Assembly (NCBI GenBank): GCA_964609905.1
Contig: CAZSUH010000004.1
Location: forward strand, 971-64,970
Source: an uncultured Verrucomicrobiota bacterium
GTDB lineage: Bacteria > Verrucomicrobiota > Kiritimatiellia > CAIKKV01
Direction of reading: 5' to 3'
DNA length: 64,000 bases
In this document: positions 47,736 through 64,000 of the stretch, piece by piece
How the letters are laid out: each line of letters starts with the position of its first letter
How positions within the stretch are numbered: the stretch's first letter is position 1
Notes under the pieces: model-generated
Told to the model about the DNA's origin: nothing
Seen by the model: the letters and a program-made list of their open reading frames with translations, nothing else
Databases searched by the model: none
Translations under genes and position numbers: made by a program

Positions 47736-48664
47736 GCATCCGCTTCAAACACCGCCTCGAATTCGCCGCGCTTCTCGCCGTCAAGGCGATCGCAAGCCGT
47801 TTGCCCTACCGCGCCGCGCTCGGCCTCGGCTGGCTCCTGGCCGTTCTGGGCTTTTCCCTCTTTCGCTACCGACGTGCCGAGGCGGTCCGACGCATCCGGA
47901 AGGTGTTCGGAGAATCCTGCGCGCGGGACCGAGCCGAGCGGATTGCCTGGGCCGCCTTTCGAAATTTCTGTTTCACGGCCATCGAATCCATGCGCGGCAA
48001 CCAAATCACCCCCGCCTGGGTGGCCCGTCATGTCTCCGATGAACATGTGTTCGCGGTGTTGGCCGCGCGGAGTCGCGACCAGGGCGGCGCCGTTTTCGCC
48101 CTGCCCCACATGGGATCCTGGGAACTCGCGGGATCCGCCTGCCAAGCGATGGGCATTCCCCTTTTCTCGATTGCCGCCCGGCAGAAAAATCCGCTTTTTA
48201 CCGACTACCTGAATCGGCAGCGCGATGGGTCGGGAATCGAAATCCTGGTGCGAGGCGAAATCTCGTTCAAAACCGTGCTGCGTAATATCCAGTCCGGCAA
48301 ATATTTCGCCATCCTCCCGGATGTGCGTTGCCCGACACCCGCCTTGGCCGTGCCGTTCCTCGGGGGCATCGCCAATATCGCGGCGGGCATGGCCCTTTTC
48401 GCCCGTCAGAGCCAGGCGCCCATCTTCCCCTGTATCCTGCTCCGGCACGGCTGGACACGCCATACCTTCAAACTGTTCGATCCGATCACGCCCGATCACG
48501 CCCGCCCGCGCGACGAGGAACTGCTCCGGATGACCCGCGCCGTCTTCGCCTGTTTCGACAAGGCTATCCGGGAGTATCCCGACCAGTGGTTCTGGTTCAA
48601 CAAACGCTGGATTCTGGACCCCGTGGAGCCGCCCGCCGCGTCTATTTCCCGCCCCCCTCCATGA
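47732..48664 (+). CDS. LpxL/HtrB-family (lysophospholipid/lipid A) acyltransferase
   Basis: ...VFALPHMGSWELAG... (HX4E/D-type motif)...YFAILPDV...FLGGIANIAAGMALFA. ATGA overlap with the DUF362 gene. Confidence 0.75.
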   Translation: MSIRFKHRLEFAALLAVKAIASRLPYRAALGLGWLLAVLGFSLFRYRRAEAVRRIRKVFGESCARDRAERIAWAAFRNFCFTAIESMRGNQITPAWVARHVSDEHVFAVLAARSRDQGGAVFALPHMGSWELAGSACQAMGIPLFSIAARQKNPLFTDYLNRQRDGSGIEILVRGEISFKTVLRNIQSGKYFAILPDVRCPTPALAVPFLGGIANIAAGMALFARQSQAPIFPCILLRHGWTRHTFKLFDPITPDHARPRDEELLRMTRAVFACFDKAIREYPDQWFWFNKRWILDPVEPPAASISRPPP

Positions 48665-50249
48665 CCTGCCGTTCCAGCATCGCGTAACGCGGCAGCAACT
48701 CCGTATAAATCCGGTGCGCCGCAAGATCGGGCTCCAGGGACTTCTTCATCCCGGATGGCGCCCGCCACACCTCGGCATACGGCACAAAGGCCCCCGCGCG
48801 ACCGCAACGCCAGCCGTGCAGGGCCCGGCAGGCGGCGCCTAGGGCGGCCGAATTCGGCGCCTCCCCCGTCAAGACCGGCACGCCGAACACATCCGCGATC
48901 ACGCGCAACACCGCCGGATCTACCGACGCCCCGCCCGTGGCCAAAATGCCGGCCGGCTGAATGCCCACGGCCGCCGCATGCAACCGCATTGAAAGGAATT
49001 GGCCCTCCAGCACGGCGCGCGCCTCCACGTCCGGTGGAAATGACGACACCGGCGACCCCTCCGGGCCAAATCGGAACGTGCCGGTCCGCAGGATGGGAGG
49101 CGTAATCTCCGGTTCCCGGATGTAGAAACCCAGGTTCCCGCCATTACCGGGTCGCGACTGCGCCACCCGCGCGCCAAATGCCCGCCAGTTCCCGGCCTTT
49201 ATTTCTCGACGCACCGCATCCCGCGTGAGGGAGCCATTCTTGAAACAGATCAGCGCCATGTAGCCGTCGGGATCCACGGGATTCACGAACACGTGCCCCT
49301 CACGCCCGGACGGTTTCGGCGCCTTCAACGCCCCGAACACCGTGTCGCTCGTGCCCAGGCTGATCGCAATGTCGCCCGGCTTTCTCAAGCCCAGCCCCGC
49401 CAGACTGCACGGATTGTCGCCCGACGCCGCGACCACCTGGCACGCCGCGGTAAACCCGTAATCCTGGCGCAAGGCCGGCGCCAACCGCCCCACGAGCGTG
49501 TGCGAGGCCACCGGCGCTCCCAACCGTGCCGCCAGTTCCGGTGCCGTCACCTCCAGCGATTTCGCATCCCAGGCATGCCCCCGGATATCCAGCAGGTTCA
49601 TGCCGGAGCCGTCACTCCAGTCAATCGGCGCGTAATCGCCGGTCAACAGGCTGGCGGCAAAGGAACTGACCAGGCTGATCCGCTCGGTGGCCGCATAGGC
49701 CACCGGCTGGCATCGCGCAATCCTGGCGATCTGGTTGCCGGTGAACCGTTCGTAGGCGCGCGAGCCCGTGATGTCCGCCACGGCCTGCGGCCCCCCGAGC
49801 GCCACCTCACGGGCCCGGCACTCGGCGGTCGTGCTGGAGTCCATCCAGACCGGCGACGCCGCCACCGCAAAGGCGCCGGCCAACTGGTCCTGCAGCAACT
49901 GACCCGCTTTCAAACCCTTCAGTCGTCGGCGCGCGCCTTTCTTCCAGTACACGCTGCCATGTTGTTGCCCGGAAACGGACACCGCCGACACCCTGGCAAA
50001 GGGAAACCGATCCGCCTTCATACGGGACAGCAGCAAATCGAGCGCCGCCACCCACAGAAGCGGAGGCGCCGTGACGGTCAACCCGTCCGCCCCCTTGTGT
50101 ACCCCCCCCCGGGTCTCGAACGCCGGAAGCTCGGCATCGAAATTGACGTTCCGCTCGACCGCAACCCGCAGCGTCTCGTCCACCGCCAGGGCCTTGATCC
50201 CCTGCGTGCTGAAATCCAATCCCAAAAACAAACGCGCCTCTTTCGCCAT
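48642..50249 (-). CDS. xylB: Xylulokinase, eukaryote-like FGGY family
   Basis: LFLGLDFSTQGIKALAVDE...ELPAFETRGGVHKGADGLTVTAPPLLWVAALDLLL...VSVSGQQHGSVYW closely parallels animal/fungal XYLB. The start was moved to the ATG at 50249. The 3' end overlaps the acyltransferase convergently by 23 nt. Confidence 0.85.
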   Translation of the reverse strand: MAKEARLFLGLDFSTQGIKALAVDETLRVAVERNVNFDAELPAFETRGGVHKGADGLTVTAPPLLWVAALDLLLSRMKADRFPFARVSAVSVSGQQHGSVYWKKGARRRLKGLKAGQLLQDQLAGAFAVAASPVWMDSSTTAECRAREVALGGPQAVADITGSRAYERFTGNQIARIARCQPVAYAATERISLVSSFAASLLTGDYAPIDWSDGSGMNLLDIRGHAWDAKSLEVTAPELAARLGAPVASHTLVGRLAPALRQDYGFTAACQVVAASGDNPCSLAGLGLRKPGDIAISLGTSDTVFGALKAPKPSGREGHVFVNPVDPDGYMALICFKNGSLTRDAVRREIKAGNWRAFGARVAQSRPGNGGNLGFYIREPEITPPILRTGTFRFGPEGSPVSSFPPDVEARAVLEGQFLSMRLHAAAVGIQPAGILATGGASVDPAVLRVIADVFGVPVLTGEAPNSAALGAACRALHGWRCGRAGAFVPYAEVWRAPSGMKKSLEPDLAAHRIYTELLPRYAMLERQVMEGGGK

Positions 50250-50287
50250 AGCGATGCTTCCCGGCCGCGCCAAATCCTTCCGCGCGA

Positions 50288-52003
50288 TCAGCGTAACAAC
50301 CACTCCTGCGCCCGCAACTCCTTGGAAGAGGCGAACGACCACTCCTCCCGGCCGGCCTTCAACACGGCCCGTGACGGCTCCACGATCAGGCGCATCGGCT
50401 CGTCCGGCTTGCGCGCCGCCCACAGGTTCGCCAGGAGCAGCGCCTTCTCCACTCCATCGCCCCGCCGGAAATTCCAGACCTCGTCCGGTTGGGCCAACCG
50501 GCCGGTCCCGTCATAAATGGACTCCTCGGCAAGCCCCTGAACCGTCTGGACCAGTCCCCCATCGCACAGGTCGCGGGCCATCCCGACGGAAACCGGGTTG
50601 CGTTCCATCGCCGCTTTCACGAACGGCGCCGCCTCGGTCCGGTTCAAATCCCGGTAGGCGTAAAACGCCATGTCCGCTATACTGTTTTTCCCGCGCAGGC
50701 TGTCCAGCCGCTCCAGCACCTCTTCCCGCCGCATCGCGCCGGTCAGATCGAGCGGAGTTTCGGACGGTAGAAATATTTTCTCGGCTTCGACGGGAAGCCG
50801 CGGTTCGATGCAACAAAACCGAATCAGCGCTTCGATGGCCGTCTGCGCGTTCAGACAGTTGCACGAAAACTGTGTCCGCAGGTTCTCCACATCCCCGGGA
50901 TCGGACAGGTCGATCTCGCGGCTCTTGGCAAAGGACTCCAGTTCATTCAGCACAATCCGGTCGGGCAGGGGCGAGGGTTGGAACAACTCGGCGTCCACTT
51001 CCGCCATCAGTTTCTCTCGGGTTTGATCCGTGAACGAATAGCTGCTCCCCTGCTCATACGGGAACACCGCTTCAACCCCGATATAGCGGTCCGCACCCCG
51101 GATCGGCCACCGGAGTTGGAAACATTTCTGGAAGTCCCGGACATGCCGCAGAAAGTTTCCCAGCAGTTCGGATCCGAACGGCGCCCTCAAAAACGAGGCC
51201 AGCCGACCCTGGAACCGCGCATATGCCCCGCGATCGATCGTCGCCTCGCGGTAAAGCGTGTGGACATAGCCGCTCTCATGGCAGACAATCGTGACCCGCT
51301 CATTCTCGAGCGCACGCCGCGCCTGAGCGGACAACGCCGTGCCGTTGAACCACATGGTCTTGGTCACCAGCCGCCGGTTGTTGGTGAGAATGCCGTCGTC
51401 CACATCGATGAAATTCTGCGAGTGCAACGGCGTGGCCATCAGGTAAAGGTCCCGCAACGGAATCTCGGCCACCAGGAACAGCGCGGCGGCATACAGCCCC
51501 GCCAGCGAAACGCACTCCCCCGCCCCGGTGACGTACCCGGGCTTATGCCGGAAGGCGTCCATCGCCTCAACCGTCTCCGTCTTCCAATACGGAATGACGT
51601 CGCCCCCGTATTTGTCGAGCCCGAAATGGGTCCGGATATCGATGTCGAAGTAATACTTGTCGCCCTCATACCCGAACAGGGCGTTGGATTGGCGCAGCGC
51701 GTCCTCGTCCAGAAAGCCGCGAAATCGAGCCAGTTCCCGCTCCTTGGTGGTCAACCCCCAGGTGTCCAGGTCCAGGTTGAACGTGTAGTGGTCCATGATG
51801 TACTGCTTGAGCCGCGAAATGCGGCGATAGACCTTTTTTTCCCGCTTCGCAAACCAGGCGTCCTCCCGCCACTTCCAGATGCGGGGGGACAGAATGTTGG
51901 CGAGCACCAGCGCGTACATCAGGTCCGGAAACAAAAACAGCTCCATGTCCGACAACGTGACGGCGGACGATTTCTTCTCGAGCAGCCAGGCGTCATGATT
52001 CAT
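50288..52003 (-). CDS. Hypothetical protein (571 aa), possible transglutaminase-like Cys/His/Asp core
   Basis: MNHDAWLLEKK...GYVTGAGECVSLAGLYAAALFLVAEIP...ATPLHSQNFIDVDDG.... Composition is normal. The start was moved to the ATG at 52003. The functional guess rests on a local motif only. Confidence 0.7.
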   Translation of the reverse strand: MNHDAWLLEKKSSAVTLSDMELFLFPDLMYALVLANILSPRIWKWREDAWFAKREKKVYRRISRLKQYIMDHYTFNLDLDTWGLTTKERELARFRGFLDEDALRQSNALFGYEGDKYYFDIDIRTHFGLDKYGGDVIPYWKTETVEAMDAFRHKPGYVTGAGECVSLAGLYAAALFLVAEIPLRDLYLMATPLHSQNFIDVDDGILTNNRRLVTKTMWFNGTALSAQARRALENERVTIVCHESGYVHTLYREATIDRGAYARFQGRLASFLRAPFGSELLGNFLRHVRDFQKCFQLRWPIRGADRYIGVEAVFPYEQGSSYSFTDQTREKLMAEVDAELFQPSPLPDRIVLNELESFAKSREIDLSDPGDVENLRTQFSCNCLNAQTAIEALIRFCCIEPRLPVEAEKIFLPSETPLDLTGAMRREEVLERLDSLRGKNSIADMAFYAYRDLNRTEAAPFVKAAMERNPVSVGMARDLCDGGLVQTVQGLAEESIYDGTGRLAQPDEVWNFRRGDGVEKALLLANLWAARKPDEPMRLIVEPSRAVLKAGREEWSFASSKELRAQEWLLR

Positions 52004-52070
52004 ACGGGCATAGTACGCGGATCGCGCCCCAGCCGCAATGGGAATTGGCGGGCCGGGATGAGCGTTTCGA

Positions 52071-52913
52071 TCAGCGGCCCGAGAGGGTGAAATAGGCGTT
52101 AAAACAGATTTCGCCCCCGGTTTGCTCCAGGAACTGCCGTTCCGGCGACACATAACCGGCCTCCTCGAGCAGCGTGAATACGTCCACCGGTCTTTTCCCA
52201 AAGAAGTTCAACGTATACGGATTGATCTCGATCATCAGTCCGGCGAAGGCGTGAGCGTGGAGCGTCCTCCGCATTCCCCTCAGAACGTGGCACTCGAATC
52301 CCTCCACGTCAATTTTGGCAATCCAGGTTGGGGCGAATGGCAGCCGCAATCCGGCGCGGGCCAGCCAGTCATCGAAAGTCACAACGGGCACATCGACGGT
52401 CTGCCCCTTCAGCTCCGGATGATTGCCCAAGGTGGAATGGCCGGTGTCGTCGCCGCCGGTATGCAACCCCCGGGTGGTCTCGTCATCGCCCAGTGCGCAT
52501 CCGGCCACGGAAAAACGACGCTCCAAACCATTTCTCCTCCGAGCCCTCTCCATGCGCGCCGCATTTTCGGGAAGCGGATCGAACGCATACACATCAACCG
52601 GCTTCTTTTGGGTCAACATCCAGTAGGAGAAGAAACCGTAATTGGCGCCGATGTCGAAAAAAACGGAACCCTCCCGGATCCAGCCTGCCAGAATCCGTGC
52701 GGCGGGATGCTCGAATCGCACCCCCTGCCAATAGGTGACTTTTTGAGTGGCGTCGCGCAGGTTCAGGTCGACACGCAAACAGGGAAAGAGTTCGACTTCC
52801 TGCTCGGCCGGCGCGCTTCGATAAAAGGCGTCAAATGCGCGCCTTCCCAAGGGTGGAAAGCGGTAGCCCATCCACGCGCGCAGGCGATCCGCCAATTGCC
52901 ATCGTGTCAGCAT
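52071..52913 (-). CDS. FkbM-family methyltransferase
   Basis: ...VFFDIGANYGFFSYW...VYAFDPLPEN...AKIDVEGFECHVLRGM. The start was moved to the ATG at 52913. Confidence 0.8.
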   Translation of the reverse strand: MLTRWQLADRLRAWMGYRFPPLGRRAFDAFYRSAPAEQEVELFPCLRVDLNLRDATQKVTYWQGVRFEHPAARILAGWIREGSVFFDIGANYGFFSYWMLTQKKPVDVYAFDPLPENAARMERARRRNGLERRFSVAGCALGDDETTRGLHTGGDDTGHSTLGNHPELKGQTVDVPVVTFDDWLARAGLRLPFAPTWIAKIDVEGFECHVLRGMRRTLHAHAFAGLMIEINPYTLNFFGKRPVDVFTLLEEAGYVSPERQFLEQTGGEICFNAYFTLSGR

Positions 52914-53984: not shown

Positions 53985-54563
53985 TCACTTCCAGCAGCCG
54001 CTGGCCGTGGTTTCCTGAACGGGTATCGGGGACCGGTTGTCCCCCGGCTCGGGCGCCGTTTTGGCGTTTCTGAAGCCCAGGGCCAGCGTCACCGCCACCA
54101 GAAGCGCGCAGGCGCCGATCAACCCCGTCAGCCGGGCAACGTGTCCTTCCGGTTCGGGCGGATCGGCCTCGACTTCCATTCGGGCAAGGGGCGCATCCGG
54201 CTCCAACAGGCATTTCAGAATACAAGCGCCGACCGCCACGTAGGATCCGTCCCGCAACTCGTTCTCCGCCCCCAGCAACCCCTCGTCCACCCCTTCCGCC
54301 GAGGGCGCAACTGGAACGGATTTCGAAACCAGATCGCCCCCCCGCACCCGGTGCAGCCGGGTCCCGTTCCGGCTGCCCAGGTCCACCACGTAATACCGGC
54401 TGTCCCGCCGGACGATCTCCGCATGCAGGCGCGAGACACCGTCATGCGCGACCGAAACTTCCGCATCGCACCGGTTGCCGATCAGGGCCGGAAATCGCTT
54501 CACCCGGAACACCCGGCTGGCCGCCGAATCCGTCACATCCACCACGACCAGGTTCATGGTCAA
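53985..54563 (-). CDS. FHA-domain protein with a C-terminal TM segment
   Basis: FPALIGNRCDAEVSVAHDGVSRLHAEIVRRDSRYYVVDLGSRNGTRL (FHA core), followed by LTGLIGACALLVAVTLALGF (TM). Confidence 0.85.
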   Translation of the reverse strand: MTMNLVVVDVTDSAASRVFRVKRFPALIGNRCDAEVSVAHDGVSRLHAEIVRRDSRYYVVDLGSRNGTRLHRVRGGDLVSKSVPVAPSAEGVDEGLLGAENELRDGSYVAVGACILKCLLEPDAPLARMEVEADPPEPEGHVARLTGLIGACALLVAVTLALGFRNAKTAPEPGDNRSPIPVQETTASGCWK

Positions 54564-54573
54564 CTCCTCTGTC

Positions 54574-55341
54574 TTAAGGCCGCAATTCCACCAATTGCCG
54601 GCTGATTCGCGCTACGCAGCCCGTCTCCACCCAGAGCCGCAGGGGATCGCCCTCCGGCATGCTCAAGGCCAACCGCATCCAGGCATCCCGCGCCTCGTCC
54701 AGCCGTAACGATTCTTCCAGCCGCCGGGGCTCCTCGAACCGTTTCGCATAACGCCGGCAATCCCGCTCGAACGCTTCCACTTCCCCAGGGTTGCCTCCTC
54801 CGTGGCGGGAATCCCCGAGAAGACGCATGGCATCCTGCAAGTCGCCTCCACAACGCGCCGTCCATGCCTTTTCCATTCCGTTGTTTTCGGAATCGGCACC
54901 TGTTCCCCCGGTTAATCCCCGGCTTACCGCGGTCCCCGCCATCAGCAACGACAGGAACAGGCCCACGCCGGCCCATCGCCGCATCGCGGGCGAAAGCTTG
55001 ATCCGAAACCGCCGGGAGACGGAAGCCGTGAGACGGAAGACAAGCACCGTGTGTCCCAACGTAACCGAGTCGCCATCGCTCAACACCGCCGTATCCACGC
55101 GTTTTCCCTGCACGATCACACCCGCTTTGCTGGGTTGTTCCGGCCAATCCTCGATCACCAGTCGAGTGCCGGTCACATGGCCCCGGGCGTGATGCCGCGA
55201 GACGCTCATGTCCCGCACCAGGGCACAGTCCACGGCATCCTCCCGAACCGCCCGCCCGATTGAAAATCCGCCGGACGGAACCTCGAACACCCGGCCCTGC
55301 TCGGGCCCTTTCACCACTTCAATCCGGATTGTCGGATTCAT
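54574..55341 (-). CDS. FHA-domain protein with a central TM segment and a C-terminal helical domain
   Basis: FSIGRAV...DMSVSRHHARGHV...VIEDW..PSKAGVIVQGKRV (FHA), followed by WAGVGLFLSLLMAGTAV (TM). Confidence 0.8.
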   Translation of the reverse strand: MNPTIRIEVVKGPEQGRVFEVPSGGFSIGRAVREDAVDCALVRDMSVSRHHARGHVTGTRLVIEDWPEQPSKAGVIVQGKRVDTAVLSDGDSVTLGHTVLVFRLTASVSRRFRIKLSPAMRRWAGVGLFLSLLMAGTAVSRGLTGGTGADSENNGMEKAWTARCGGDLQDAMRLLGDSRHGGGNPGEVEAFERDCRRYAKRFEEPRRLEESLRLDEARDAWMRLALSMPEGDPLRLWVETGCVARISRQLVELRP

Positions 55342-55359: not shown

Positions 55360-56235
55360 TTACAGGCCGCCAAAACCGTTCAGATACATTTTGGCCTGGC
55401 TGACCAGGAGCGGAATGAACACCAGGCAGGCAAACGCCGGCACCATGAGAAGCAACAGGGGCAGGAGAATTTTTTGTTGCGCCTGGGCCCCCGAGCGTTC
55501 CGCCTTTTCCATCCGTTCCAGCCGCATCTTCTCGGCTTGTGCGGCCAATACATTCGCGACGCCGGCGCCCAGGTCAAGGCCCTGGCAGAGGATCGCCACA
55601 AAACTGGTCATCTCCGCCATCCGGATGCGGCGGGCCATCTCTTGCAACGACCCCGACAGAGAACGGCCCAGCGCCATGTCACGACGCGTCAGTTTCAACT
55701 CCTCGCGCAACGGACCGGCCCCGATTTTCTCCAGGACCCGATCGATGGACGCGCCGAACTCGAGCCCCGCCAGCGTGCATAACGCCAGCAGATCCACCAC
55801 GTAGGGCATGCTCCTGCGGATGGAGGCATGCCGCTCCTGAATGGCGCCCATCACCCACAAATCGGGAAACACCAGCCCCAGCGCCACCAACCCGGCCTGC
55901 ACCGGCAAACGGAAGGGCATGCCGGCCAACAACAGGGCGACGGCCAGCACAAAACGCAAGGACATGTAGTCTTCTGCCCGGATGACATGCCCATATCCGG
56001 CCGCGGTCAAGTTCCCCTGTATCCAACGGCTCCACGCCGGAATCCACGACAAGACGCGGCGGGACAAACCGGAAAAGATCGGAAAGCCCGGCCGTAGAGC
56101 GGCAAATAGTCCCGGCATTTCCGCGATCTTCGTTCCGTCAGATCCGGTTGCCATGGCGCTCATGACCCAGAAGGCCGTCGCGCCCGTGGCCGTTGTGACG
56201 CACAGCACGGATAGTTCTAAAAAAAGATTCTGCAT
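55360..56235 (-). CDS. tadC: Tad/T2SS-F family inner-membrane platform protein (TadC-like)
   Basis: ...MPYVVDLLALCTLAGLEFGASIDRVLEKIG.GPLREEL...LGRSLSGSLQEMARRI... is a T2SSF-domain pattern. Adjacent to the tadB-like gene. Confidence 0.8.
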   Translation of the reverse strand: MQNLFLELSVLCVTTATGATAFWVMSAMATGSDGTKIAEMPGLFAALRPGFPIFSGLSRRVLSWIPAWSRWIQGNLTAAGYGHVIRAEDYMSLRFVLAVALLLAGMPFRLPVQAGLVALGLVFPDLWVMGAIQERHASIRRSMPYVVDLLALCTLAGLEFGASIDRVLEKIGAGPLREELKLTRRDMALGRSLSGSLQEMARRIRMAEMTSFVAILCQGLDLGAGVANVLAAQAEKMRLERMEKAERSGAQAQQKILLPLLLLMVPAFACLVFIPLLVSQAKMYLNGFGGL

Positions 56236-56248
56236 GGTTGACCTCCCG

Positions 56249-57085
56249 TTATACTTTCACCGACGCCATGTTCCGGATGACCACCAACGCCAATCCGTTA
56301 AAAACAGATCCGATCGCCAACAGGCACTTTCCCCACCCCGTCGCAAACACGCCCCGCACGCCTTCCGGATCCAGACAGAGCCAGCCGACCAACAGTAGAT
56401 ACGGAAGGGCGGCCAGTGTATATCCCTGGAACCGGGTCTCCGAGGTCATGGTTCTCACGCGATCCTCGACGCGTTCCCGTTCGCGGATCATCTGGACCAG
56501 TCCGTCCAGAATACGGGTCAAATCCCCGCCTGTCTGCCGGCCCACCTGAACGGCCGTCACAAAAATCCGCACGCTTTCTCCTTTCATGCGCGCGGCCAGC
56601 CGTTCAAGTCCCTCGTCCAGGGATACACCCAGATCGCGGTCCCTGACCACCCGACCGAATTCAGGGCCGGCTGGTGCGGGCATCTCCCGGGCCACAATAT
56701 CCACGGCCTGGCTCAAGTTAAAACCGGCTCTCATGGAGTTGGCGATCATCAACAGCACATCCATGAATTGCCGTTGAAAGAGACGGCACCGCCAGCCCTG
56801 GTAAGCCGACAACACCCAACCGGGCGCGAACAAACCCACGCCCATCGCCAGACCGGCCAACAACAGACTGCGAGTCAGCGCATACAAGGCAAATCCGGCG
56901 AACCCGGAAACCGCCGCAATCCCCGCCAGAATGACCCGCTGCCCCAAAGCCACCCGCTCCCGTCCGAACCCCTCGGCGGCGGAGACGGCCGTCTCCAAAA
57001 TCCGCTTCCAAACGAGGGGCGCCAACAACCAGGCAGCCGAGAAACTCAATCCCCAAACTCCAAGATCCCAAATGGTCGCTCGCAT
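56249..57085 (-). CDS. tadB: Tad/T2SS-F family inner-membrane platform protein (TadB-like)
   Basis: ...FMDVLLMIANSMRAGFNLSQAVDIVAREMP.PAGPEF...LGVSLDEGLERLAARM... Confidence 0.8.
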   Translation of the reverse strand: MRATIWDLGVWGLSFSAAWLLAPLVWKRILETAVSAAEGFGRERVALGQRVILAGIAAVSGFAGFALYALTRSLLLAGLAMGVGLFAPGWVLSAYQGWRCRLFQRQFMDVLLMIANSMRAGFNLSQAVDIVAREMPAPAGPEFGRVVRDRDLGVSLDEGLERLAARMKGESVRIFVTAVQVGRQTGGDLTRILDGLVQMIRERERVEDRVRTMTSETRFQGYTLAALPYLLLVGWLCLDPEGVRGVFATGWGKCLLAIGSVFNGLALVVIRNMASVKV

Positions 57086-57107: not shown

Positions 57108-58529
57108 CTACAGACTCGGCCACTGAAAAGGAGCCGGCCAGTCGAACGGAAACCAGCCGTAAAAATCGATCCCTTCCCACTCGTTCAAACCCGTCAACGC
57201 GTTGATGCCTTCTGCCAGGCAGACGGGAAATTCAGTCGAACGGCGTCCGATGCTGGAGTCAGGCAGGTCCATCTGATGTGCCACGGCCTGCTGCAAACAG
57301 GTGTCCACCGCCGCGTTCGCCCGTTCACTGGCCGGCGCCTTGATCAATCGGCCCAGAAAGGCCAGTCCCTTGCCCACTCCGTCTTGGATGACGCGGCGCG
57401 CTGAGCGCAGGGGTTTCATCACCTCGTTCTCAAAGATTTTTGCCGCATCCTGACCTAATTTTCGGATCACGCCATATCCGGCCTCATGCACCTTCCGGAG
57501 CGCCTGGATTCCGAGCTGGGCGAGGTAGGCTTTGGGATTTTCCTGGAACGCCTTCAACCAGGCCAGCAACTGACTCAGATCCGTCAAGTTCAGACGCTTC
57601 ATCAGTTCTTCCGCGTCCATCTCGAATTCCACGGCAAATCCACAGCCAAGCCCCAGCGAGGCGCCAATGCTGGCCATGAAACTGACTTTCCCGTTCCATC
57701 CAAGGGTAGCCACCGCTTTGCCCTCAGCCAGCGCTCCCGCATACCCCGAGGCAATCAGATTAACGTTTGTTTTCACCCCAAACACATGCGCTTCGAAGTT
57801 CAGCTTGACCTCCCCCTTGGCGTAAACGCCCGCGGAACCCTGTGCGCCGAAGGTAATGCCCTTCTCGTCCACATAGGCGCCCATTTTCCCTTTGGCCACG
57901 GCCGCCACCTCAAGTTTTGCCGTGCCTTTGAAACTTGCGCCCACCTTTTTATCGCCGATCGCCATCTTGACTGTGTTGGCTTTCAACGACGCCTCCACCC
58001 CGATTTTTCCCTGGGCTTCGACCCCGTTGTCCCCCAACCGCACCTTGCCGTCCGCGCCGGCGTCGGCCTTGACCGCCAGCGTGCCAAGATCACCGCGTAC
58101 CGTTTTACGGTAAGAGGGACCCGTCTCGCCGGTCCAAACGGTCTCCCCGTTTTTAAGCCGGGTCCCGCCTATTTCGCGGGTCGTGGAATTGCCGATTTTG
58201 GCCTCCACGCCGGTTTTCGTGTCCACGAACCGGCCGGCTTCGCCCTCCCAAGTCGTCTCTCCGGTTTCGCCATGCCAACCGATCTCACGGGTCTTGACTT
58301 GCGTGCCCGATTTGCATGTCGCCCACTGGCCGCCGTCGGAAACGGTCCGGGACTGAATCTGCCGGGTTTCGGTAGTGACCTTAACCGCGCGTTCCGGTTG
58401 ACGAACCGTGGTTTTATCCGTCGTCGTGACGCGCGTTTTCGTTTCCGCCCCGGCGTTCAAACCGATTCCCAGAAGAACCGCCAAGAGGCAGCGTAAACCT
58501 GTTTTTCCCGCAACTAGCGTGACGTTCAT
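57108..58529 (-). CDS. Unknown secreted protein (473 aa) embedded in the Tad-like operon
   Basis: Signal peptide MNVTLVAGKTGLRCLLAVLLGIGLNAGA. Then a Thr/Gly/Lys/Glu-rich beta-like repeat region (GETGETTWEGEAG, GVEAQGKIGVEASLKANTVK, GASFKGTAKLEVAAVAKGKMGAY, AKGEVKLNFEAHVFGVKTNVNL). Then a helical C-terminal part ending in the aromatic tail FYGWFPFDWPAPFQWPSL. Confidence 0.75.
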   Translation of the reverse strand: MNVTLVAGKTGLRCLLAVLLGIGLNAGAETKTRVTTTDKTTVRQPERAVKVTTETRQIQSRTVSDGGQWATCKSGTQVKTREIGWHGETGETTWEGEAGRFVDTKTGVEAKIGNSTTREIGGTRLKNGETVWTGETGPSYRKTVRGDLGTLAVKADAGADGKVRLGDNGVEAQGKIGVEASLKANTVKMAIGDKKVGASFKGTAKLEVAAVAKGKMGAYVDEKGITFGAQGSAGVYAKGEVKLNFEAHVFGVKTNVNLIASGYAGALAEGKAVATLGWNGKVSFMASIGASLGLGCGFAVEFEMDAEELMKRLNLTDLSQLLAWLKAFQENPKAYLAQLGIQALRKVHEAGYGVIRKLGQDAAKIFENEVMKPLRSARRVIQDGVGKGLAFLGRLIKAPASERANAAVDTCLQQAVAHQMDLPDSSIGRRSTEFPVCLAEGINALTGLNEWEGIDFYGWFPFDWPAPFQWPSL

Positions 58530-58545: not shown

Positions 58546-59895
58546 TTACGGTTTCTTGGCATGGGCGGTCCAACCCGGATCTTTGCCCTGTCCGATCAGG
58601 ATCAAATCATCGAGCATCTTCATCGCATGGGGCGCCCATGGGCTCGATCCGTCCGCCACGACCGCCAGCAGGCGAAGCCCCCGGTCGAAATCGATTTGGC
58701 TCAACACCAGAAAGCGTCCAAGGTTGTACTGCGCATCCGGGAAATAGGGATCGGCCGCAACCGCCTTCGAGAAGCAATCCAGGGCGCCGTCGGCATCCGA
58801 TCGCTGAGTGGCGATCACGCCCAGATCGTTCCACGCGCGGGCATAGGCCGGCTTCAACTCGACACATTTGCGAAAGGCGGCTTCCGCTCGGACCACATCC
58901 CCGGTCTTGTCGTAGCACAGACCGAGCACATACCAGTTTTCCGGCACGCCGGGAAAACGGCGGGTTCCTTCTTCCGCTTGGGAGATCGCCTCGCCCATGC
59001 GCCCCTGTTCCGCCAGAACGGCGGCCAGGTCGTTGCGCACGGCCGGATCGGCGGGATACGTTCGGATCAAATCCCGCAGAATGGCTTCGGATTCCCGCCA
59101 CTCACGCCGGCGGCCGTGCAGGCGTGCTAATTGAAGGCGGGCTTCGGGAAAATCGGGCCGGGCTTTCAGCATCTCGCGCAACACCCGGTCCGCCTGCTCC
59201 ACCATTCCCTCGCGCACATAATGCGTGGCCAGCATCAGTTTGCTTTCGGGCGTGTCCCCGGAAACCTCAACCAGTGCCTGCCACACGCTTTCCTGCTGCT
59301 CCCTCATGCCGGCCTGATCGTAAAGGCGGGCCAGCAAAAAAAGGGTTTCCGCGTCGCCGGGATTCAGGCGAAGGCTGACGATCAGGTATTCCGCGGCCAG
59401 TTTGAGATTGCCCGACTCGATCAACAGCCGCGCCAAATTGTTCAAGGGCATGGCCAACAGGGGATTTTCGCGGACCGATCGCTCAAACGCCTTCTGCGCG
59501 TCCGGAATCCGCCCCTCCTTCAACAACACCGCGCCCAGGTTGTTCCAGGCCAGCGCATTTTCCGAATCCCATTCCACGGCCTGGCGATAATAGAACTCGG
59601 ATCGACCCAGATTGTTGCGCTGCAGGTGAAGGTTGCCGGCGTTATTGGCCGCGCCGCTGTAAATACGGCGCACATCGGGATCCGCCCCGGACTTGGCCCC
59701 CGCCAGCACGTTCTGAAAGGCCGTCAGGGCCTCCTCCATGCGGCCCGCTTCCTGATGCGCCACCCCCCGGTTGTAGGTTTCCGCCACCGCTCTGTTTGTG
59801 TCCGGCACCGTCGCCTCCCGCTCCACGCGTTCATCCTGCGCCCGGCACACGCCCAGCGCCGCCATCATCAACCCGATCCCGATCACCCGTTTCAT
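58546..59895 (-). CDS. TPR-repeat protein (TadD-like, possible lipoprotein)
   Basis: MKRVIGIGLMMAALGVCRAQ (signal/lipobox-like), followed by multiple TPR units (A..Y.LG......G....A...F..A). The start was moved to the ATG at 59895. Confidence 0.75.
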   Translation of the reverse strand: MKRVIGIGLMMAALGVCRAQDERVEREATVPDTNRAVAETYNRGVAHQEAGRMEEALTAFQNVLAGAKSGADPDVRRIYSGAANNAGNLHLQRNNLGRSEFYYRQAVEWDSENALAWNNLGAVLLKEGRIPDAQKAFERSVRENPLLAMPLNNLARLLIESGNLKLAAEYLIVSLRLNPGDAETLFLLARLYDQAGMREQQESVWQALVEVSGDTPESKLMLATHYVREGMVEQADRVLREMLKARPDFPEARLQLARLHGRRREWRESEAILRDLIRTYPADPAVRNDLAAVLAEQGRMGEAISQAEEGTRRFPGVPENWYVLGLCYDKTGDVVRAEAAFRKCVELKPAYARAWNDLGVIATQRSDADGALDCFSKAVAADPYFPDAQYNLGRFLVLSQIDFDRGLRLLAVVADGSSPWAPHAMKMLDDLILIGQGKDPGWTAHAKKP

Positions 59896-59975
59896 GCGTT
59901 TCTCCTTGCTTCTTCGATTCCCCGGCATCCCGGCCGCACCCGCGGCCGCAGGAGTCCGGATCGTTCCATCCGTGG

Positions 59976-61415
59976 TCAGGCCGCACCCTGGCGTGTCTGC
60001 CGCTCGTCGCCCGACGCCGAAACCGGCTCCGCCGGCCCTTCCGCAAACAACGCCCTATCGACCTCCAAGCCTCCCGCGCGCAGGCGGTCAATACAGGCGG
60101 GCACATACCCGGTGGCCCTGAACGCCCCTTCCACCCGCCCGTCTTTCGCGACGCCCGTCTGCTCGAACACGAAAATGTCCCGCGTCGTGATTTCGCCCGA
60201 TTCGATCCCCAGCACCTCGGAAATACGATCGATCTTCCGCGACCCATCGCTTAGGCGCGCGATCTGGACCACCAGTTGAACTGCGGAGGCGATGTTTCGT
60301 CGAATCACGGCAATCGGCATCTCCACGGCCATGAGCACCAACCCCTCGAGACGCGCCAACATGTCCCGGGGGGTATTGGCGTGCAGCGTCGTCATGGACC
60401 CCTCGTGCCCCGTGTTCATGGCCTGGAGCATGTCGAACGCCTCGGCGCCCCGGCACTCGCCCACAATAATCCGGTCGGGTCGCATGCGGAGCGCGTTGCG
60501 CACCAGATCGCGAATGGTCACCTCGCCCCGCCCTTCCACGTTGGCCCGGCGCGCTTCGAGCCGCACCAGGTTCAAATGGGTCAGCCGGAGTTCGGCCGAA
60601 TCCTCGATCGTGATCACCCGTTCATCCCCCGACACCGCCTGCGACAGCGCATTGAGCAAGGTGGTTTTCCCCGTTCCCGTGCCGCCCGATACGATCAGAT
60701 TGCGGCGGCCCCGCACGCACAACTCCAGGAACCGCATCATCGCCGGCGTGCAGGAACCGCGCGCGATCAGATCCGCCGCGCCCAGCCCCCGCTTGGCGAA
60801 CTTGCGAATGGTGATCGTGGCCCCGTCCACGGCCAGGGGCGGCAGAATGATGTGTACCCGGGAACCGTCTCGCTCCAGTCTCGCATCCACGTAGGGCATG
60901 CTTTCGTCCACCCGGCGGCCGATCGGCGCCACAATCCGGTCGATGATACTGGCGAGCTGCTTGGAGGTGGCGAAACGGCGGCTGGTCAGTTCCATCCGAC
61001 CATGCCGGGCCACAAAAATGCGCTCCGGTCCGTTGACCATGATCTCCTCGACGCTCTCGTCCTTGAGCAGGTCCTCCAACGGCCCCAGTTCCAACGCCTC
61101 GTCCAGCACCTCCTTGACCAGCGTCTCCCGCTCATGCGCGGAAATCGGCTCGCCCAGCCGGTCCATCTCGAATCGGATGATGTCCTCCGTGCGGGTTCGC
61201 AACGCGATCATGCGCATCGCTCCTTCCAGAACATCCAGATTCATCCGGCGCAGTTCCTCGTTCTCCTGCACCTGTGCCAGAAGCCGGGACTTAATCCCCT
61301 GGAGCCGGCCGCGCCGCTCTTTTTCGCGCTCCTCGATCACGGCCAAAACCGTTTTCATGTCGATGCATTTCGTCCCCCCCGAATCAACCGGGGCGTGTTC
61401 TCGTCGCTCGTTCAT
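59976..61415 (-). CDS. cpaF: CpaF/TadA-type secretion ATPase
   Basis: ...LIVSGGTGTGKTTLLNAL (Walker A)...RPDRIIVGECRGAEAFDMLQAMNTGHEGSMTTLHAN... Confidence 0.92.
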   Translation of the reverse strand: MNERREHAPVDSGGTKCIDMKTVLAVIEEREKERRGRLQGIKSRLLAQVQENEELRRMNLDVLEGAMRMIALRTRTEDIIRFEMDRLGEPISAHERETLVKEVLDEALELGPLEDLLKDESVEEIMVNGPERIFVARHGRMELTSRRFATSKQLASIIDRIVAPIGRRVDESMPYVDARLERDGSRVHIILPPLAVDGATITIRKFAKRGLGAADLIARGSCTPAMMRFLELCVRGRRNLIVSGGTGTGKTTLLNALSQAVSGDERVITIEDSAELRLTHLNLVRLEARRANVEGRGEVTIRDLVRNALRMRPDRIIVGECRGAEAFDMLQAMNTGHEGSMTTLHANTPRDMLARLEGLVLMAVEMPIAVIRRNIASAVQLVVQIARLSDGSRKIDRISEVLGIESGEITTRDIFVFEQTGVAKDGRVEGAFRATGYVPACIDRLRAGGLEVDRALFAEGPAEPVSASGDERQTRQGAA

Positions 61416-61417
61416 GA

Positions 61418-62911
61418 TTACTTCTCCTTATTCCGGCCGCCTTGCCCTTTTTCCGACAACTCCGCCCTGCTCCTCACGCCGTCCCGCAACGCCTCCTCCT
61501 CCGGCCCCCCCGGCACGATGCGCCGGGGCGTGATCAGGATGACCAGTTCGCTTTGTTTTTTTCGATAACGGTCGGACTTGAACAACTCGCCCAGCACGGG
61601 AATGTCGCCCAGGCCAGGAATCTTGGAAACGTCCTCGGTGGCCGTATGCCCAATGAGCGCGCCCAGGCTGAGCGTCTGGCCCTGTTTGACGTTGACCGAG
61701 GTGCGGACATAGCGCTTCAGAATCGACGGATATGACCCAATCACAGGCCCAAGACTGCTGAACTCGATGGCGACTTTGGTCTCCAGATTCCCCGCCTTGT
61801 CCATCCGGGGTTCCAGGTTCATTCCAATCCCGTATTCCACCTCCTTCACCTCCACGTCCCGATCGCCCGGTCCGGTGGCCACGATATGGAAGGAGCCGCC
61901 CGCGAAAAACCGGCTGTTCCCGCCGTCTTCGCAAACCAGGTTCTGGGTGTAGAGCACACGGGCCTCGCCAGACTGAACGTGCGGCAGAAGCAACTCAAAG
62001 AGTTTGGTCGTGCCCAGCGATACCGAGGAAACAGGATCAGCTCCGCGGGAGGCGGCTTTCCAGCCGGCCTGCAAACTGAGCGTCTGAACGCCCCCCCAAT
62101 CCACGCCCATCTCGCGCATCGTATCGAGGGTGATTTCCACCAGCTGGCACTCCAGCAGAAGCAGCGGTTTTTCAAGCACCACGTCCTGGGGCATGTCCGC
62201 GGCCTTCCAGGGCTTCACCGTCAGAAAACTTCGCACCTCGGGATAGATGGATCGGGCGGCCGCTTCGGTAAAAGCCTTCTCCGCTTCGCCAAACACCATC
62301 CCCTGCAAAAACAACTCCCGCCCGCAAAAGGAAACGTCGATGTTGCCGTTGGCGATCCGTTCCCGTACGGCGGCGACAACCGAAGCGCCGAAGGCGGAAT
62401 CCAGGCCGGTCAGGTCCACCACGGACTCGCCGTACACGGCCCGTATCCGGGCGACCGCGTCCAGTTCATGCCGGTTGGCAATCCGCCCCATGATCCGAAC
62501 CTTGTCCGAACCGGGGACGGGCGCCGCTGTCAGCGACTCCAGCGCCTTCCCCTCCGGGTCGACCAGCAACGATTGGACCGCGGCATCGAGAGGCCCCGAT
62601 CCCTCGCTCCGCCCCACAAACACTTCCAACCGATCCCGCTCCGTTTCCGCCTGGTCAAACACAAACACGGTGGCCCGCCCTTCCTGAAGCGGCGTCATCA
62701 CCAGCGTGTCGCCGGCAATTTCCACGCCCACCACCCGATCCCCCCCCGCGGCCAACTCAGCGCGCGAAACGGCATAGTCCGCCGAGAACGCGCCGGGTTT
62801 CCCGGATTTCACGTCCAGGGCAACCCGCACCACCGCTCCGGAGGTTTCCACGGCCATCCACGCCGCCGCCACAAGCCCCAGTTTCCAGTTTGTTTTGTTA
62901 TGCCGATACAT
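61418..62911 (-). CDS. cpaC: Tad/type II-III secretin (CpaC/RcpA-like)
   Basis: C-terminal secretin core ...VNVKQGQTLSLGALI...VSKIPGLGDIPVLGELFKS....SELVILITPRIV. The start was moved to the ATG at 62911 (MYRHNKTNWKLGLVAAAW). Confidence 0.88.
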   Translation of the reverse strand: MYRHNKTNWKLGLVAAAWMAVETSGAVVRVALDVKSGKPGAFSADYAVSRAELAAGGDRVVGVEIAGDTLVMTPLQEGRATVFVFDQAETERDRLEVFVGRSEGSGPLDAAVQSLLVDPEGKALESLTAAPVPGSDKVRIMGRIANRHELDAVARIRAVYGESVVDLTGLDSAFGASVVAAVRERIANGNIDVSFCGRELFLQGMVFGEAEKAFTEAAARSIYPEVRSFLTVKPWKAADMPQDVVLEKPLLLLECQLVEITLDTMREMGVDWGGVQTLSLQAGWKAASRGADPVSSVSLGTTKLFELLLPHVQSGEARVLYTQNLVCEDGGNSRFFAGGSFHIVATGPGDRDVEVKEVEYGIGMNLEPRMDKAGNLETKVAIEFSSLGPVIGSYPSILKRYVRTSVNVKQGQTLSLGALIGHTATEDVSKIPGLGDIPVLGELFKSDRYRKKQSELVILITPRRIVPGGPEEEALRDGVRSRAELSEKGQGGRNKEK

Positions 62912-62936
62912 ATCCGTCTCCTGATAAGGGTTCTGG

Positions 62937-63788
62937 TTAAAGGGTCCCGAAATCTTCCAACGCCTGGCGTGTCGCCGTGCGAATCTTGACCGGCACACGG
63001 GCGCCGAATGCTTCATCGCCCTTCAACGAGGGCAACCGTTCGGGAGGCGGTTGAAGCGGTTCGACCAGGTCGTTCCGGCGGTTGCGCAACACGCAGCGGA
63101 GATAGGCCATTGGGGAGGCCAGACTCAACCGCCAGGCCTCGGCCGATGTGACCTCCACCGTGACATACACGTTCATCGGCACGGAGGAAACGGGTCGGGC
63201 AAGGCCGCCGGCCGCCTCCGCCACAGAGTCCGCGCCTACCGCCCGTTCCCCCATCCGTTGATCCACGGCCAGCACCTTGACCGCTTGCACGAGCACGCTC
63301 GCATGACTGCGGGTCGTTTCGGCTGAACTGGCCGACGACTCGAACACGCCGATGATATCCACCCGGTCATTCGGCTGAAGCAGGCCGGCCAACCCCCCTT
63401 CGCCGTCGAATTTGATCGTCATCGCGCGGGTCGCCGTTCCGGCGCGCACGCGAAGCGACAACAGGCCGGCGCCGTCTTGCGCCAGCTTGGTGGCCAGAAT
63501 CTGCTCGCCCTTGCGCAACGGGATCTGAATCATAATCCCCTCCGCGTTCCAATCGAGATTGGTCAACGCGCCCGGTTGCACGAAGGCCGATGGTGTTTCG
63601 GCCGTCTCCACATCGCGTGCTTCCAGAACATGCCCCGCCAACATGTCCCGGGCCGCCACCCAGACCGGGGTGCGGCAACCGTAAACAGCCGTGATTTCGG
63701 CTGTTTTGCGCCCCACATGAATCCGATAAAACAGCCAGGCCAGCAGACTCATCCCCAACGCCACCCACACGGTCATCTTCCTGTTCAT
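62937..63788 (-). CDS. cpaB: CpaB/RcpC-like Flp pilus assembly protein (SAF domain)
   Basis: N-terminal TM helix, then VWVAARDMLAGHVLEARDVE...IPLRKGEQIL (SAF-like), then ...RVDIIGVFES...VQAVKVLAVDQ. Confidence 0.8.
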   Translation of the reverse strand: MNRKMTVWVALGMSLLAWLFYRIHVGRKTAEITAVYGCRTPVWVAARDMLAGHVLEARDVETAETPSAFVQPGALTNLDWNAEGIMIQIPLRKGEQILATKLAQDGAGLLSLRVRAGTATRAMTIKFDGEGGLAGLLQPNDRVDIIGVFESSASSAETTRSHASVLVQAVKVLAVDQRMGERAVGADSVAEAAGGLARPVSSVPMNVYVTVEVTSAEAWRLSLASPMAYLRCVLRNRRNDLVEPLQPPPERLPSLKGDEAFGARVPVKIRTATRQALEDFGTL

Positions 63789-63809
63789 CCCATTTCTCCT
63801 GTTGGTCGT

Positions 63810-64000
63810 TTAATCGTCCGTTTCGCCATGTCCGCTGCCCGTCGCGATCCAGTAGCATCGTCGCAACGTGACCGAAGCCCGTTTTCCGCCCAACACCGCG
63901 TGAATCTCCGGCCGCATCGAAACGCGAACCTGGGTTTCAATCGGAATCAGGCGAAAAGAGGGGTCGGCATTTTCCGCCATCGCCGTGGCGATCACCGGAC
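63810..64000 (-). CDS. Hypothetical protein, C-terminal fragment (ORF open to the right edge). Possibly a TadE/TadG-like accessory protein, by position only.
   Basis: ...VIATAMAENADPSFRLIPIETQVRVSMRPEIHAVLGGKRASVTLRRCYWIATGSGHGETDD*. It lies 21 nt upstream of cpaB on the same strand. Confidence 0.4.
   Translation of the reverse strand, partial: PVIATAMAENADPSFRLIPIETQVRVSMRPEIHAVLGGKRASVTLRRCYWIATGSGHGETDD

Follow-up and report, generated by a model that had tools for sequence, protein, structure and literature searches.

We analysed a 64,000-nucleotide stretch of contig CAZSUH010000004.1 from an uncultured Verrucomicrobiota bacterium of the class Kiritimatiellia (the window), in which a Tad pilus operon carries, between a tetratricopeptide repeat (TPR) gene and tadB, the gene for a 473-aa exported protein that we call X. 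X is an atypical but conserved member of the Tad operon, and the TPR-X module adds a new conserved element to a machine of a known kind, the FHA-associated Tad-like type IV filament machine. The interpretation that we favour, tentatively and with somewhat less than even confidence, is that X serves an FHA-type Tad machine resembling the Kil system of Myxococcus as a membrane-active cargo or translocator, staged in the periplasm and chaperoned by the TPR protein. X is a concrete cargo candidate because it is exported, strictly linked to Tad genes, paired with a TPR protein and built on a core with a hydrophobic face, and because relatives occasionally carry a CHAP or phospholipase A2 (PLA2)-like module. 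No description of the X family or of the TPR-X pair was found in the literature, including the papers on Kil.

Conservation over the full length, conserved synteny and a ribosome-binding site mark X as a real gene rather than a chance open reading frame (ORF). The ribosome-binding site (GGAAAGGA) lies ~8 nt upstream of the start MNVTL, which is aligned with residue 1 in 16 of 16 homologues. A longer reading of 484 aa from an in-frame ATG at 58562 was rejected because it would overlap the end of the TPR gene. X is separated from the TPR gene by 16 nt and from tadB by 22 nt, and these neighbours, a TPR gene and a T2SSF/TadB gene, are the ones named in an earlier first-pass annotation of the stretch (Table 1). 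The same annotation called X an orphan, which was wrong because 16 close and ~50 distant relatives were found. Using a search of 5.8 billion proteins, we recovered 16 full-length homologues of 468-494 aa with 47-65% identity, all unnamed, which come from Kiritimatiellia, Verrucomicrobiota or Planctomycetes-Verrucomicrobia-Chlamydiae (PVC)-group metagenome-assembled genomes (MAGs) according to the genome records and show the same operon order. Using phmmer over 1.84 billion cluster representatives, 51 matches were obtained, and ~50 distant representatives match the core alone (aa ~135-345, 30-48% identity). A profile search of the 5.8-billion set with a diverse core alignment returned 3 proteins, probably because Gly/Ala-rich words swamped the candidates. 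The X family is rare and lies mostly in uncultured lineages. That no family could be recognised for X was confirmed, as no match was found in Pfam (expectation value E<=0.01), NCBIfam (E<=0.1), PHROGs, PADLOC or a PDB sequence search, or with Foldseek. None of 45 family members has a Pfam domain over the core, and nothing useful came from PDB sequence searches in which the family profile or a PLA2-like tail was the query. RcpB, CpaD, TadD and TadZ were also considered as identities of X and rejected, as X has no match to the Pfam or NCBIfam models.

The strongest clue to X is its invariant pairing with a TPR gene, which was absent from the first-pass annotation. When we gathered 32 X-family loci and scored their ORFs against the proteins of the window (the metagenome scan used a narrower alignment), a TPR gene of ~450 aa was located immediately upstream of X on the same strand in all 27 Sec-type loci with upstream DNA (~20 non-redundant), and Tad genes were present in every Sec-type X locus with a long enough contig. 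Whether homologues are ever adjacent to Tad genes had been put forward earlier as a check on the role of X, and all Sec-type homologues with enough flanking DNA were Tad-linked. Locus L023 is only an apparent exception, as prepilin peptidase, TadE and TadG genes lie just upstream. The weakest match, P0061 (Planctomycetota, E 4e-5), has no Tad or TPR neighbours; its homology is doubtful and it was not taken as a counter-example, while P0062 lies on a 2.5-kb contig that is uninformative for linkage. The TPR-X pair shifts as a unit: in Kiritimatiellia it lies between cpaF and tadB, L011 has it behind a fused tadB gene, and in L013, L015, L018, L019, L023 and L030 it directly follows the TadE/TadG (minor-pilin) genes and precedes rcpC. 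Despite this change of gene order, the linkage of TPR, X and Tad genes spans loci of 26-65% X identity and 48-66% GC.

The TPR partner, like X, carries an N-terminal signal sequence. A PDB search with it returned a generic TPR superhelix, a fold that binds peptides, rather than TadD or PilF, and its best NCBIfam match, PilW, scored 112 bits, under the cut-off of 154. Only the Kiritimatiellia clade has a Cys residue after the hydrophobic region (LGVC/LGAC); L013, L015, L018 and L019 lack it, so the lipobox is not conserved. The partner was therefore not assigned as a TadD/PilF-type pilotin: it has the TPR fold, but neither the size of about 25-27 kDa nor a conserved lipobox. Its C-terminus (window 58546-58640, minus strand; L001-L031) bears a conserved F[LI]DDLxxIxxGxDPGW motif followed by a short basic tail, and when co-variation of the DPGW motif with the tail type of X was examined, no clean pattern was found.

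The distant X loci hold further genes. L013 and L015 contain an FHA-CpaF fusion, and such loci also encode more FHA proteins and either giant Ser/Thr kinases or a PP2C phosphatase, all of them hallmarks of the Kil machinery (PMC8460266). The dual Ser/Thr kinases (~1650 aa) or the phosphatase flank the TPR-X/Tad loci at L015 1-2633, L023 11125-16107 (minus strand) and L011 1-242, and this set of kinase, phosphatase and FHA proteins recalls PpkA/PppA/Fha1. Between X and rcpC, the distant loci share conserved proteins of ~215 aa and ~140 aa, for which no Pfam family is recorded where the genes have been called (L013 7261-8034 and 8059-8586; L018 6973-7629 and 7544-8131; L030 10862-11506 and 11484-11900; L019 13268-13894 and 13855-14277). 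These proteins are additional uncharacterised parts of X-type Tad machines.

The three-part anatomy first described for X, with a signal peptide, a beta-rich part and a helical part ending in an aromatic tail, was upheld. First, the N-terminus reads as a cleavable Sec signal, as had been proposed: a basic n-region (K9/R13) is followed by an 11-residue hydrophobic region (CLLAVLLGIGL) and by NAGA, which places A-G-A at -3 to -1 in line with the -3/-1 rule before ETKT, and these features are kept in the homologues. Second, the Thr/Lys/Glu-rich region that follows is variable, and in distant homologues it is swapped for Ser/Thr-rich stretches or tandem ~17-aa repeats. The Thr/Gly/Lys/Glu quasi-repeats described in the first-pass annotation were not supported and have been dropped, because comparison of sub-blocks of the family alignment with hhalign gave no internal repeats in the beta region beyond the built-in overlaps. 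Third, helices are predicted in X at aa 306-446 with low confidence (AlphaFold2), the C-terminal region of aa 346-455 has no Pfam match even at E<=10, and the tail contains the invariant residues W459, F462, W464, P465, W470, P471 and L473, so that the helical part and the aromatic tail of the first description stand, the helices at low confidence. Short aromatic end motifs (WPxPxxWPSL, WPEPxKWPxxxW or Y.R..xF..WSK) are found in many X-family proteins, distant homologues included.

The conserved core lies between these ends. When it was modelled with AlphaFold2 from 30 diverse sequences, a mean predicted local distance difference test score (pLDDT) of 86.8 and a predicted template modelling score (pTM) of 0.70 were obtained. 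In this model the seven strands would form a next-neighbour antiparallel meander, with lengths of 18 residues for two of them and 25-26 residues for the other five, and the sheet would measure ~35 x 80 Å by our estimate from strand number and length. The last strand is Gly/Ala-rich (GASLGLGCGFAVEFEMD), and three short helices after the sheet bear the motif DAxELMxxLxLxDLxxLLxWxxxFxxxP. Family-wide, the Kyte-Doolittle means along the whole strands range from +1.7 to +3.1 on one face and from -1.3 to -1.9 on the other. On the hydrophobic face, Gly, Ala and Val abound at mid-strand and larger residues lie near the ends, and tyrosines are located on the polar face. The amphipathic beta region proposed earlier is thus borne out in the model, as long strands were predicted with alternation of hydrophobic and polar residues in every strand and across homologues. 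A sheet with one wholly hydrophobic face would need shielding, and therefore a partner, self-association or lipid should cover it. The full-length model (16 sequences) had a pLDDT of 50 with long strands over aa 31-305, and the fold search used the core model only. A Foldseek search with an AlphaFold model had been suggested at the outset, and with the core model no known fold was matched in PDB or BFVD below E 0.03, with a template modelling (TM) score of ~0.2. The best PDB match was Ail (E 0.03, TM 0.18-0.23, root-mean-square deviation 17 Å), and the other weak neighbours were also outer-membrane barrels (OmpX, OpcA and porins); these matches reflect local similarity of the meander only. Of the features of beta pore-forming toxins, amphipathic hairpins are present in the model, but the hydrophobic face spans all 18-26 residues, and no known fold of pore-forming toxins was matched.

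At their C-termini, X-family proteins carry anything from acidic, Pro-rich or Gly/Ser-rich linkers to entire domains. A CHAP domain is present at the C-terminus of P0023 (E 1.7e-7), which is encoded in a Kil-like locus and is the only one of the 45 proteins to carry it. The tails of two independent proteins, P0031 and P0045 (YGNWYGPGW...HDFAY), resemble the calcium-loop and His-Asp signature of PLA2, with sub-threshold matches to PF08398 (E 0.006 and 0.007, respectively) and, for P0045, also to PF00068 (E 0.06). Most C-termini in the family, including that of the window's X, have no recognisable domain. As far as the sequences tell, the architecture is modular and toxin-like, with a constant core and variable ends, and this supports the cargo reading.

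The core is also found outside Tad loci. In Frankiales, it forms the C-terminal half of a WXG100 protein (hhalign probability 97%, E 8e-11), and five more proteins of 330-375 aa, one of them annotated as YukE (WXG100), match the core-containing C-terminal part of this fusion. The type VII locus concerned (L014) encodes an FtsK/SpoIIIE-FHA ATPase, a WXG100 protein and a WXG100-CHAP protein, and no Tad genes were detected in the 15.6 kb covered. The WXG100-CHAP gene lies before the WXG100-core fusion, and directly after the fusion comes a domainless ORF of 160 aa (L014 9135-9977 and 11039-11521), which could encode an immunity or partner protein. Frankiales are not known to have a classical outer membrane. 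Because the core is fused to WXG100 in such a locus, we take it to work extracellularly and independently of an outer membrane; judged by this homology, it is a secreted module that needs neither an outer membrane nor a Tad machine. With the CHAP and PLA2-like modules, this fusion gives support to the option of a substrate or effector that was raised in the first-pass annotation.

Under the favoured reading, X would be exported to the periplasm by Sec, and the co-encoded periplasmic TPR protein would keep the amphipathic sheet soluble and targeted, probably by gripping the aromatic C-terminal tail. The Flp pilus would then push or carry X out through the secretin, as in type II or TcpF/CofJ secretion. 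Outside the cell, the core may insert into or disrupt a target membrane, probably after oligomerising, and in some lineages the target may in addition receive a peptidoglycan hydrolase or a phospholipase borne at the C-terminus of X. In this scheme we infer that the TPR protein binds X, that X passes through the secretin and that it acts on membranes.

Several points weigh against this reading. Within Kiritimatiellia, in line with the cargo reading, X diverges faster than its neighbours (58-61% identity compared with 67-86% for RcpC, secretin, CpaF, TPR, TadB and TadC), but over long range its core is conserved at 36-42%, which equals the level of the TPR protein and exceeds that of secretin, RcpC and TadB (22-34%), and such conservation is what one would expect of a machine part. 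X is not followed by a variable immunity-like gene, as tadB comes next in Kiritimatiellia, and in distant loci the genes downstream of X (~215 aa and ~140 aa) are conserved among loci. The PLA2 assignment stays under the Pfam threshold, and a CHAP domain could also remodel the cell's own wall, like FlgJ or EssH. The modelled sheet of the core may be open, groove-like or closed, and its predicted hydrophobic faces, 60-85 Å long, exceed the thickness of a bilayer. To our knowledge, Kiritimatiellia are not known predators.

The first two of these points, that is, a core conserved at least as well as secretin, RcpC and TadB and the lack of an immunity-like gene, also favour the main alternative, to which we give appreciable weight without considering it probable, namely that X is a structural part of the envelope, an oligomeric outer-membrane or periplasm-spanning beta structure at the secretin, with the TPR protein as pilotin or assembly factor. 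TPR and X would then functionally replace the absent TadD and RcpB/CpaD, and CHAP would cut the cell's own peptidoglycan for assembly. X is invariant in presence and position inside Tad operons, its weak Foldseek neighbours are all outer-membrane barrels, and TadD and RcpB are noted as missing in Kil (PMC8460266); TadD-type pilotins, moreover, bind the C-terminal tip of their client (PMC10499894), and the tail of X is invariant. However, a classical outer-membrane barrel is unlikely, as no closed barrel was matched (TM ~0.2, E at least 0.03), an aromatic girdle is missing from the Gly/Ala-rich hydrophobic faces, and an actinobacterium carries the core as well. Nor does the beta domain lie at the C-terminus: ~170 aa of non-beta sequence follow the sheet, and there is no C-terminal beta-signal at the end of the protein. 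The fusion of the core to WXG100 in the type VII locus, the PLA2-like tails and N-terminal regions whose hairpin repeats differ in number are hard to square with a fixed part, and the 460-aa partner, with its generic TPR matches and no conserved lipobox, is not what a pilotin would lead us to expect. Accordingly, of the outer-membrane association suggested in the first-pass annotation, the classical barrel is unlikely, and the structural envelope part survives as a rival.

It is improbable that X is a non-toxic adhesin or stalk, located on the pilus tip (TadE/TadG) or on the cell surface and presenting a variable C-terminal domain. The position of TPR-X directly after the TadE/TadG genes in distant lineages and the variable, Ser/Thr-rich N-terminal repeats, like those of surface stalks, would fit such a role; adhesion is the classical function of Tad pili, and the tips of Kil are modular (PMC12075869). 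However, X has a Sec signal peptide and no prepilin leader, no adhesin-type domain was detected in it, a wholly hydrophobic sheet face is unexpected on a soluble stalk, and the CHAP and PLA2-like modules are enzymes, not adhesins. X is not a substitute for Flp either, because the homologous Kiritimatiellia operons open with a genuine Flp prepilin (...SKRG/LSTVETIALTVVVVG...), followed by TadE and TadG; X is thus not the fibre, and the proposal of a tip or fibre component replacing Flp was abandoned. Finally, the lack of any functional annotation for X would fit a bystander, an unrelated housekeeping or periplasmic protein whose gene happens to lie in the operon, but this reading is nearly excluded because of synteny, the TPR-X-Tad linkage being kept over the whole range of X identity and GC and through changing gene order, with intergenic gaps of 16-22 nt.

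The window operon itself is co-directional and comprises RcpC, secretin, CpaF, TPR, X, TadB, TadC and two FHA proteins (Table 1). No TadZ/CpaE (ParA-like) gene lies between the secretin gene and cpaF, which abut. The CpaF protein matches PF00437 and generic P-loop/AAA families, and no FHA family. With a Tad core, several FHA proteins and no TadZ, TadD or RcpB, the locus has these features of the Kil type, but not the fusion of FHA to CpaF. The two FHA proteins that close the operon and the absence of TadZ point to phospho-threonine-dependent control, as in Kil or type VI secretion. Since the secretin ORF as listed shares 80 nt (62937-63016) with the rcpC-like gene, the secretin probably starts further downstream than 63016. 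As has been reported for KilC, a short secretin, the Secretin domain alone was detected in it, with no N-terminal pilus-formation or BON domain. Upstream of rcpC the window soon ends (63788-64000), and in homologous operons the part beyond holds genes for a Flp prepilin, TadE, a TadG-like protein and a small unnamed ORF (L001 2795-4696). Downstream of the Tad operon, a 637-aa protein (50288-52201, minus strand) and a 593-aa ORF (48642-50423, minus strand) follow. The latter may match an FGGY-type sugar kinase of L001, where a 571-aa uncharacterised protein is followed by the FGGY kinase, so that synteny with L001, by position and size only, may extend past the Tad operon.

Table 1 Position and main characteristics of X, its regions and the other genes of the Tad operon in the window.
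Feature	Position	Strand	Residues	Characteristics and basis
Gene X	57108..58529	-	473 aa	exported protein of an unclassified family; stop codon 57108-57110; ORF, start and ribosome-binding site, homologues
X, signal peptide	58446..58529	-	aa 1-28	Sec-type (MNVTLVAGKTGLRCLLAVLLGIGLNAGA, then ETKT); read from the sequence, conserved in homologues
X, N-terminal region	58113..58445	-	aa 29-139	variable, Thr/Lys/Glu-rich; predicted beta-hairpins, low confidence
X, conserved core	57495..58112	-	aa 140-345	predicted seven amphipathic antiparallel strands, then three-helix segment
X, C-terminal region	57165..57494	-	aa 346-455	clade-specific, predicted helical; C411 near-invariant, C437 invariant
X, C-terminal tail	57111..57164	-	aa 456-473	aromatic/proline tail FYGWFPFDWPAPFQWPSL
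TPR partner	58546..59928	-	460 aa	exported, ~10 repeats; Pfam TPR families, E down to 1e-35
RcpC/CpaB-like protein	62937..63788	-		PF16976, E 1.5e-17
Secretin (CpaC/RcpA-like)	61418..63016	-		PF00263, E 1.5e-29
CpaF/TadA ATPase	59976..61415	-	479 aa	PF00437, E 7e-61
TadB-like platform protein	56249..57085	-		PF00482
TadC-like platform protein	55360..56235	-		PF00482
FHA-domain protein 1	54574..55341	-		YscD-type cytoplasmic domain, then hydrophobic stretch (membrane segment by eye); PF16697 and PF00498
FHA-domain protein 2	53985..54563	-		hydrophobic stretch (membrane segment by eye); PF00498

Tad pili are usually seen as adhesive fibres, and X gives a testable candidate for the missing cargo of Tad-like machines that harm or engage targets. 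Two stronger statements can be derived from the cargo reading, and we regard both as realistic but less likely than not. One is that the TPR-X pair is the missing killing module of Kil-type Tad machines, with X as a membrane-breaching translocator or toxin of a new beta-sheet fold, recognised by the TPR protein at its aromatic tail, fired through the secretin by the Flp pilus and in some lineages armed with a peptidoglycan- or lipid-degrading enzyme; its core would have been recruited independently as an actinobacterial type VII toxin. The other, which we hold to be about as probable, is that the X family is the first cargo or translocator family of FHA-associated Tad-like machines. If X is structural instead, it is an unrecognised conserved part of this class of machines. 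The reuse of the core in type VII substrates points to an extracellular activity that is independent of the secretion system.

Compared with known systems, X shares individual features with several. With the outer-membrane barrels Ail, OmpX and OpcA, X shares a meander of long antiparallel strands that are all next neighbours, but it is set apart by the weak structural match, the missing aromatic girdle and its presence in an actinobacterium. The order of signal peptide, beta domain and C-terminal passenger recalls the inverse autotransporter intimin. Like polymorphic toxins and WXG100/LXG type VII substrates, the X family combines an N-terminal secretion determinant with a constant middle, followed in a few members by a CHAP domain or a putative PLA2-like module, and CpnT of Mycobacterium similarly joins a channel domain to a C-terminal toxin. 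The family differs from polymorphic toxins in having no adjacent variable immunity gene and in its highly conserved core, which is unmatched in the family libraries searched. The type III translocators and their class II TPR chaperones (LcrH-YopB/D and IpgC-IpaB/C) offer another comparison, since there the chaperone gene immediately precedes one that encodes a membrane-inserting protein. X resembles them in the TPR gene directly upstream in the machine operon and in a conservation between that of a machine part and that of an effector. However, the type III chaperones are small and cytoplasmic and have three TPRs, whereas the partner of X has 460 aa and a signal peptide, and the type III translocators are helical, whereas X is predicted to be beta.

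TcpF and CofJ are encoded in pilus operons, carry a Sec signal, are staged in the periplasm and are exported through the pilus secretin. Both are soluble proteins that type IVb pilus machines secrete (cited in PMC12075869). X likewise has a Sec signal peptide and is encoded in a pilus operon, and it would share the periplasmic staging and export through the secretin, but it shows no sequence or fold similarity to them and has a beta core with a hydrophobic face. We know of no TPR partner of TcpF or CofJ. TadD of Pseudomonas, a TPR protein, binds its client RcpA at the final four residues (PMC10499894). This is likewise a TPR protein of a type IV filament locus, and its grip on a tail suggests a role for the invariant tail of X. 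TadD differs in being a 27-kDa lipoprotein whose client is the secretin, whereas the TPR partner of X is about twice as large and adjoins X, not the secretin.

The closest comparison in gene content is the Tad-like Kil machinery of Myxococcus, which kills by contact; the Kil papers report its effectors as unidentified, name no toxin or translocator and list many of its cluster genes without an assigned function (PMC8460266, PMC12075869). The Kil genes MXAN_4653, 4654, 4656 and 4657 are unannotated, and the published table gives them no TPR domain. The X loci differ from Kil in that the window CpaF is not fused to FHA and the host is a Kiritimatiellia MAG without a known predatory habit. In common with Kil, they have RcpC, secretin, CpaF, TadB/C, TadE/TadG and several FHA proteins and lack TadZ, TadD and RcpB, and the distant X loci carry, in addition to giant Ser/Thr kinases, the FHA-CpaF fusion that is typical of KilF.

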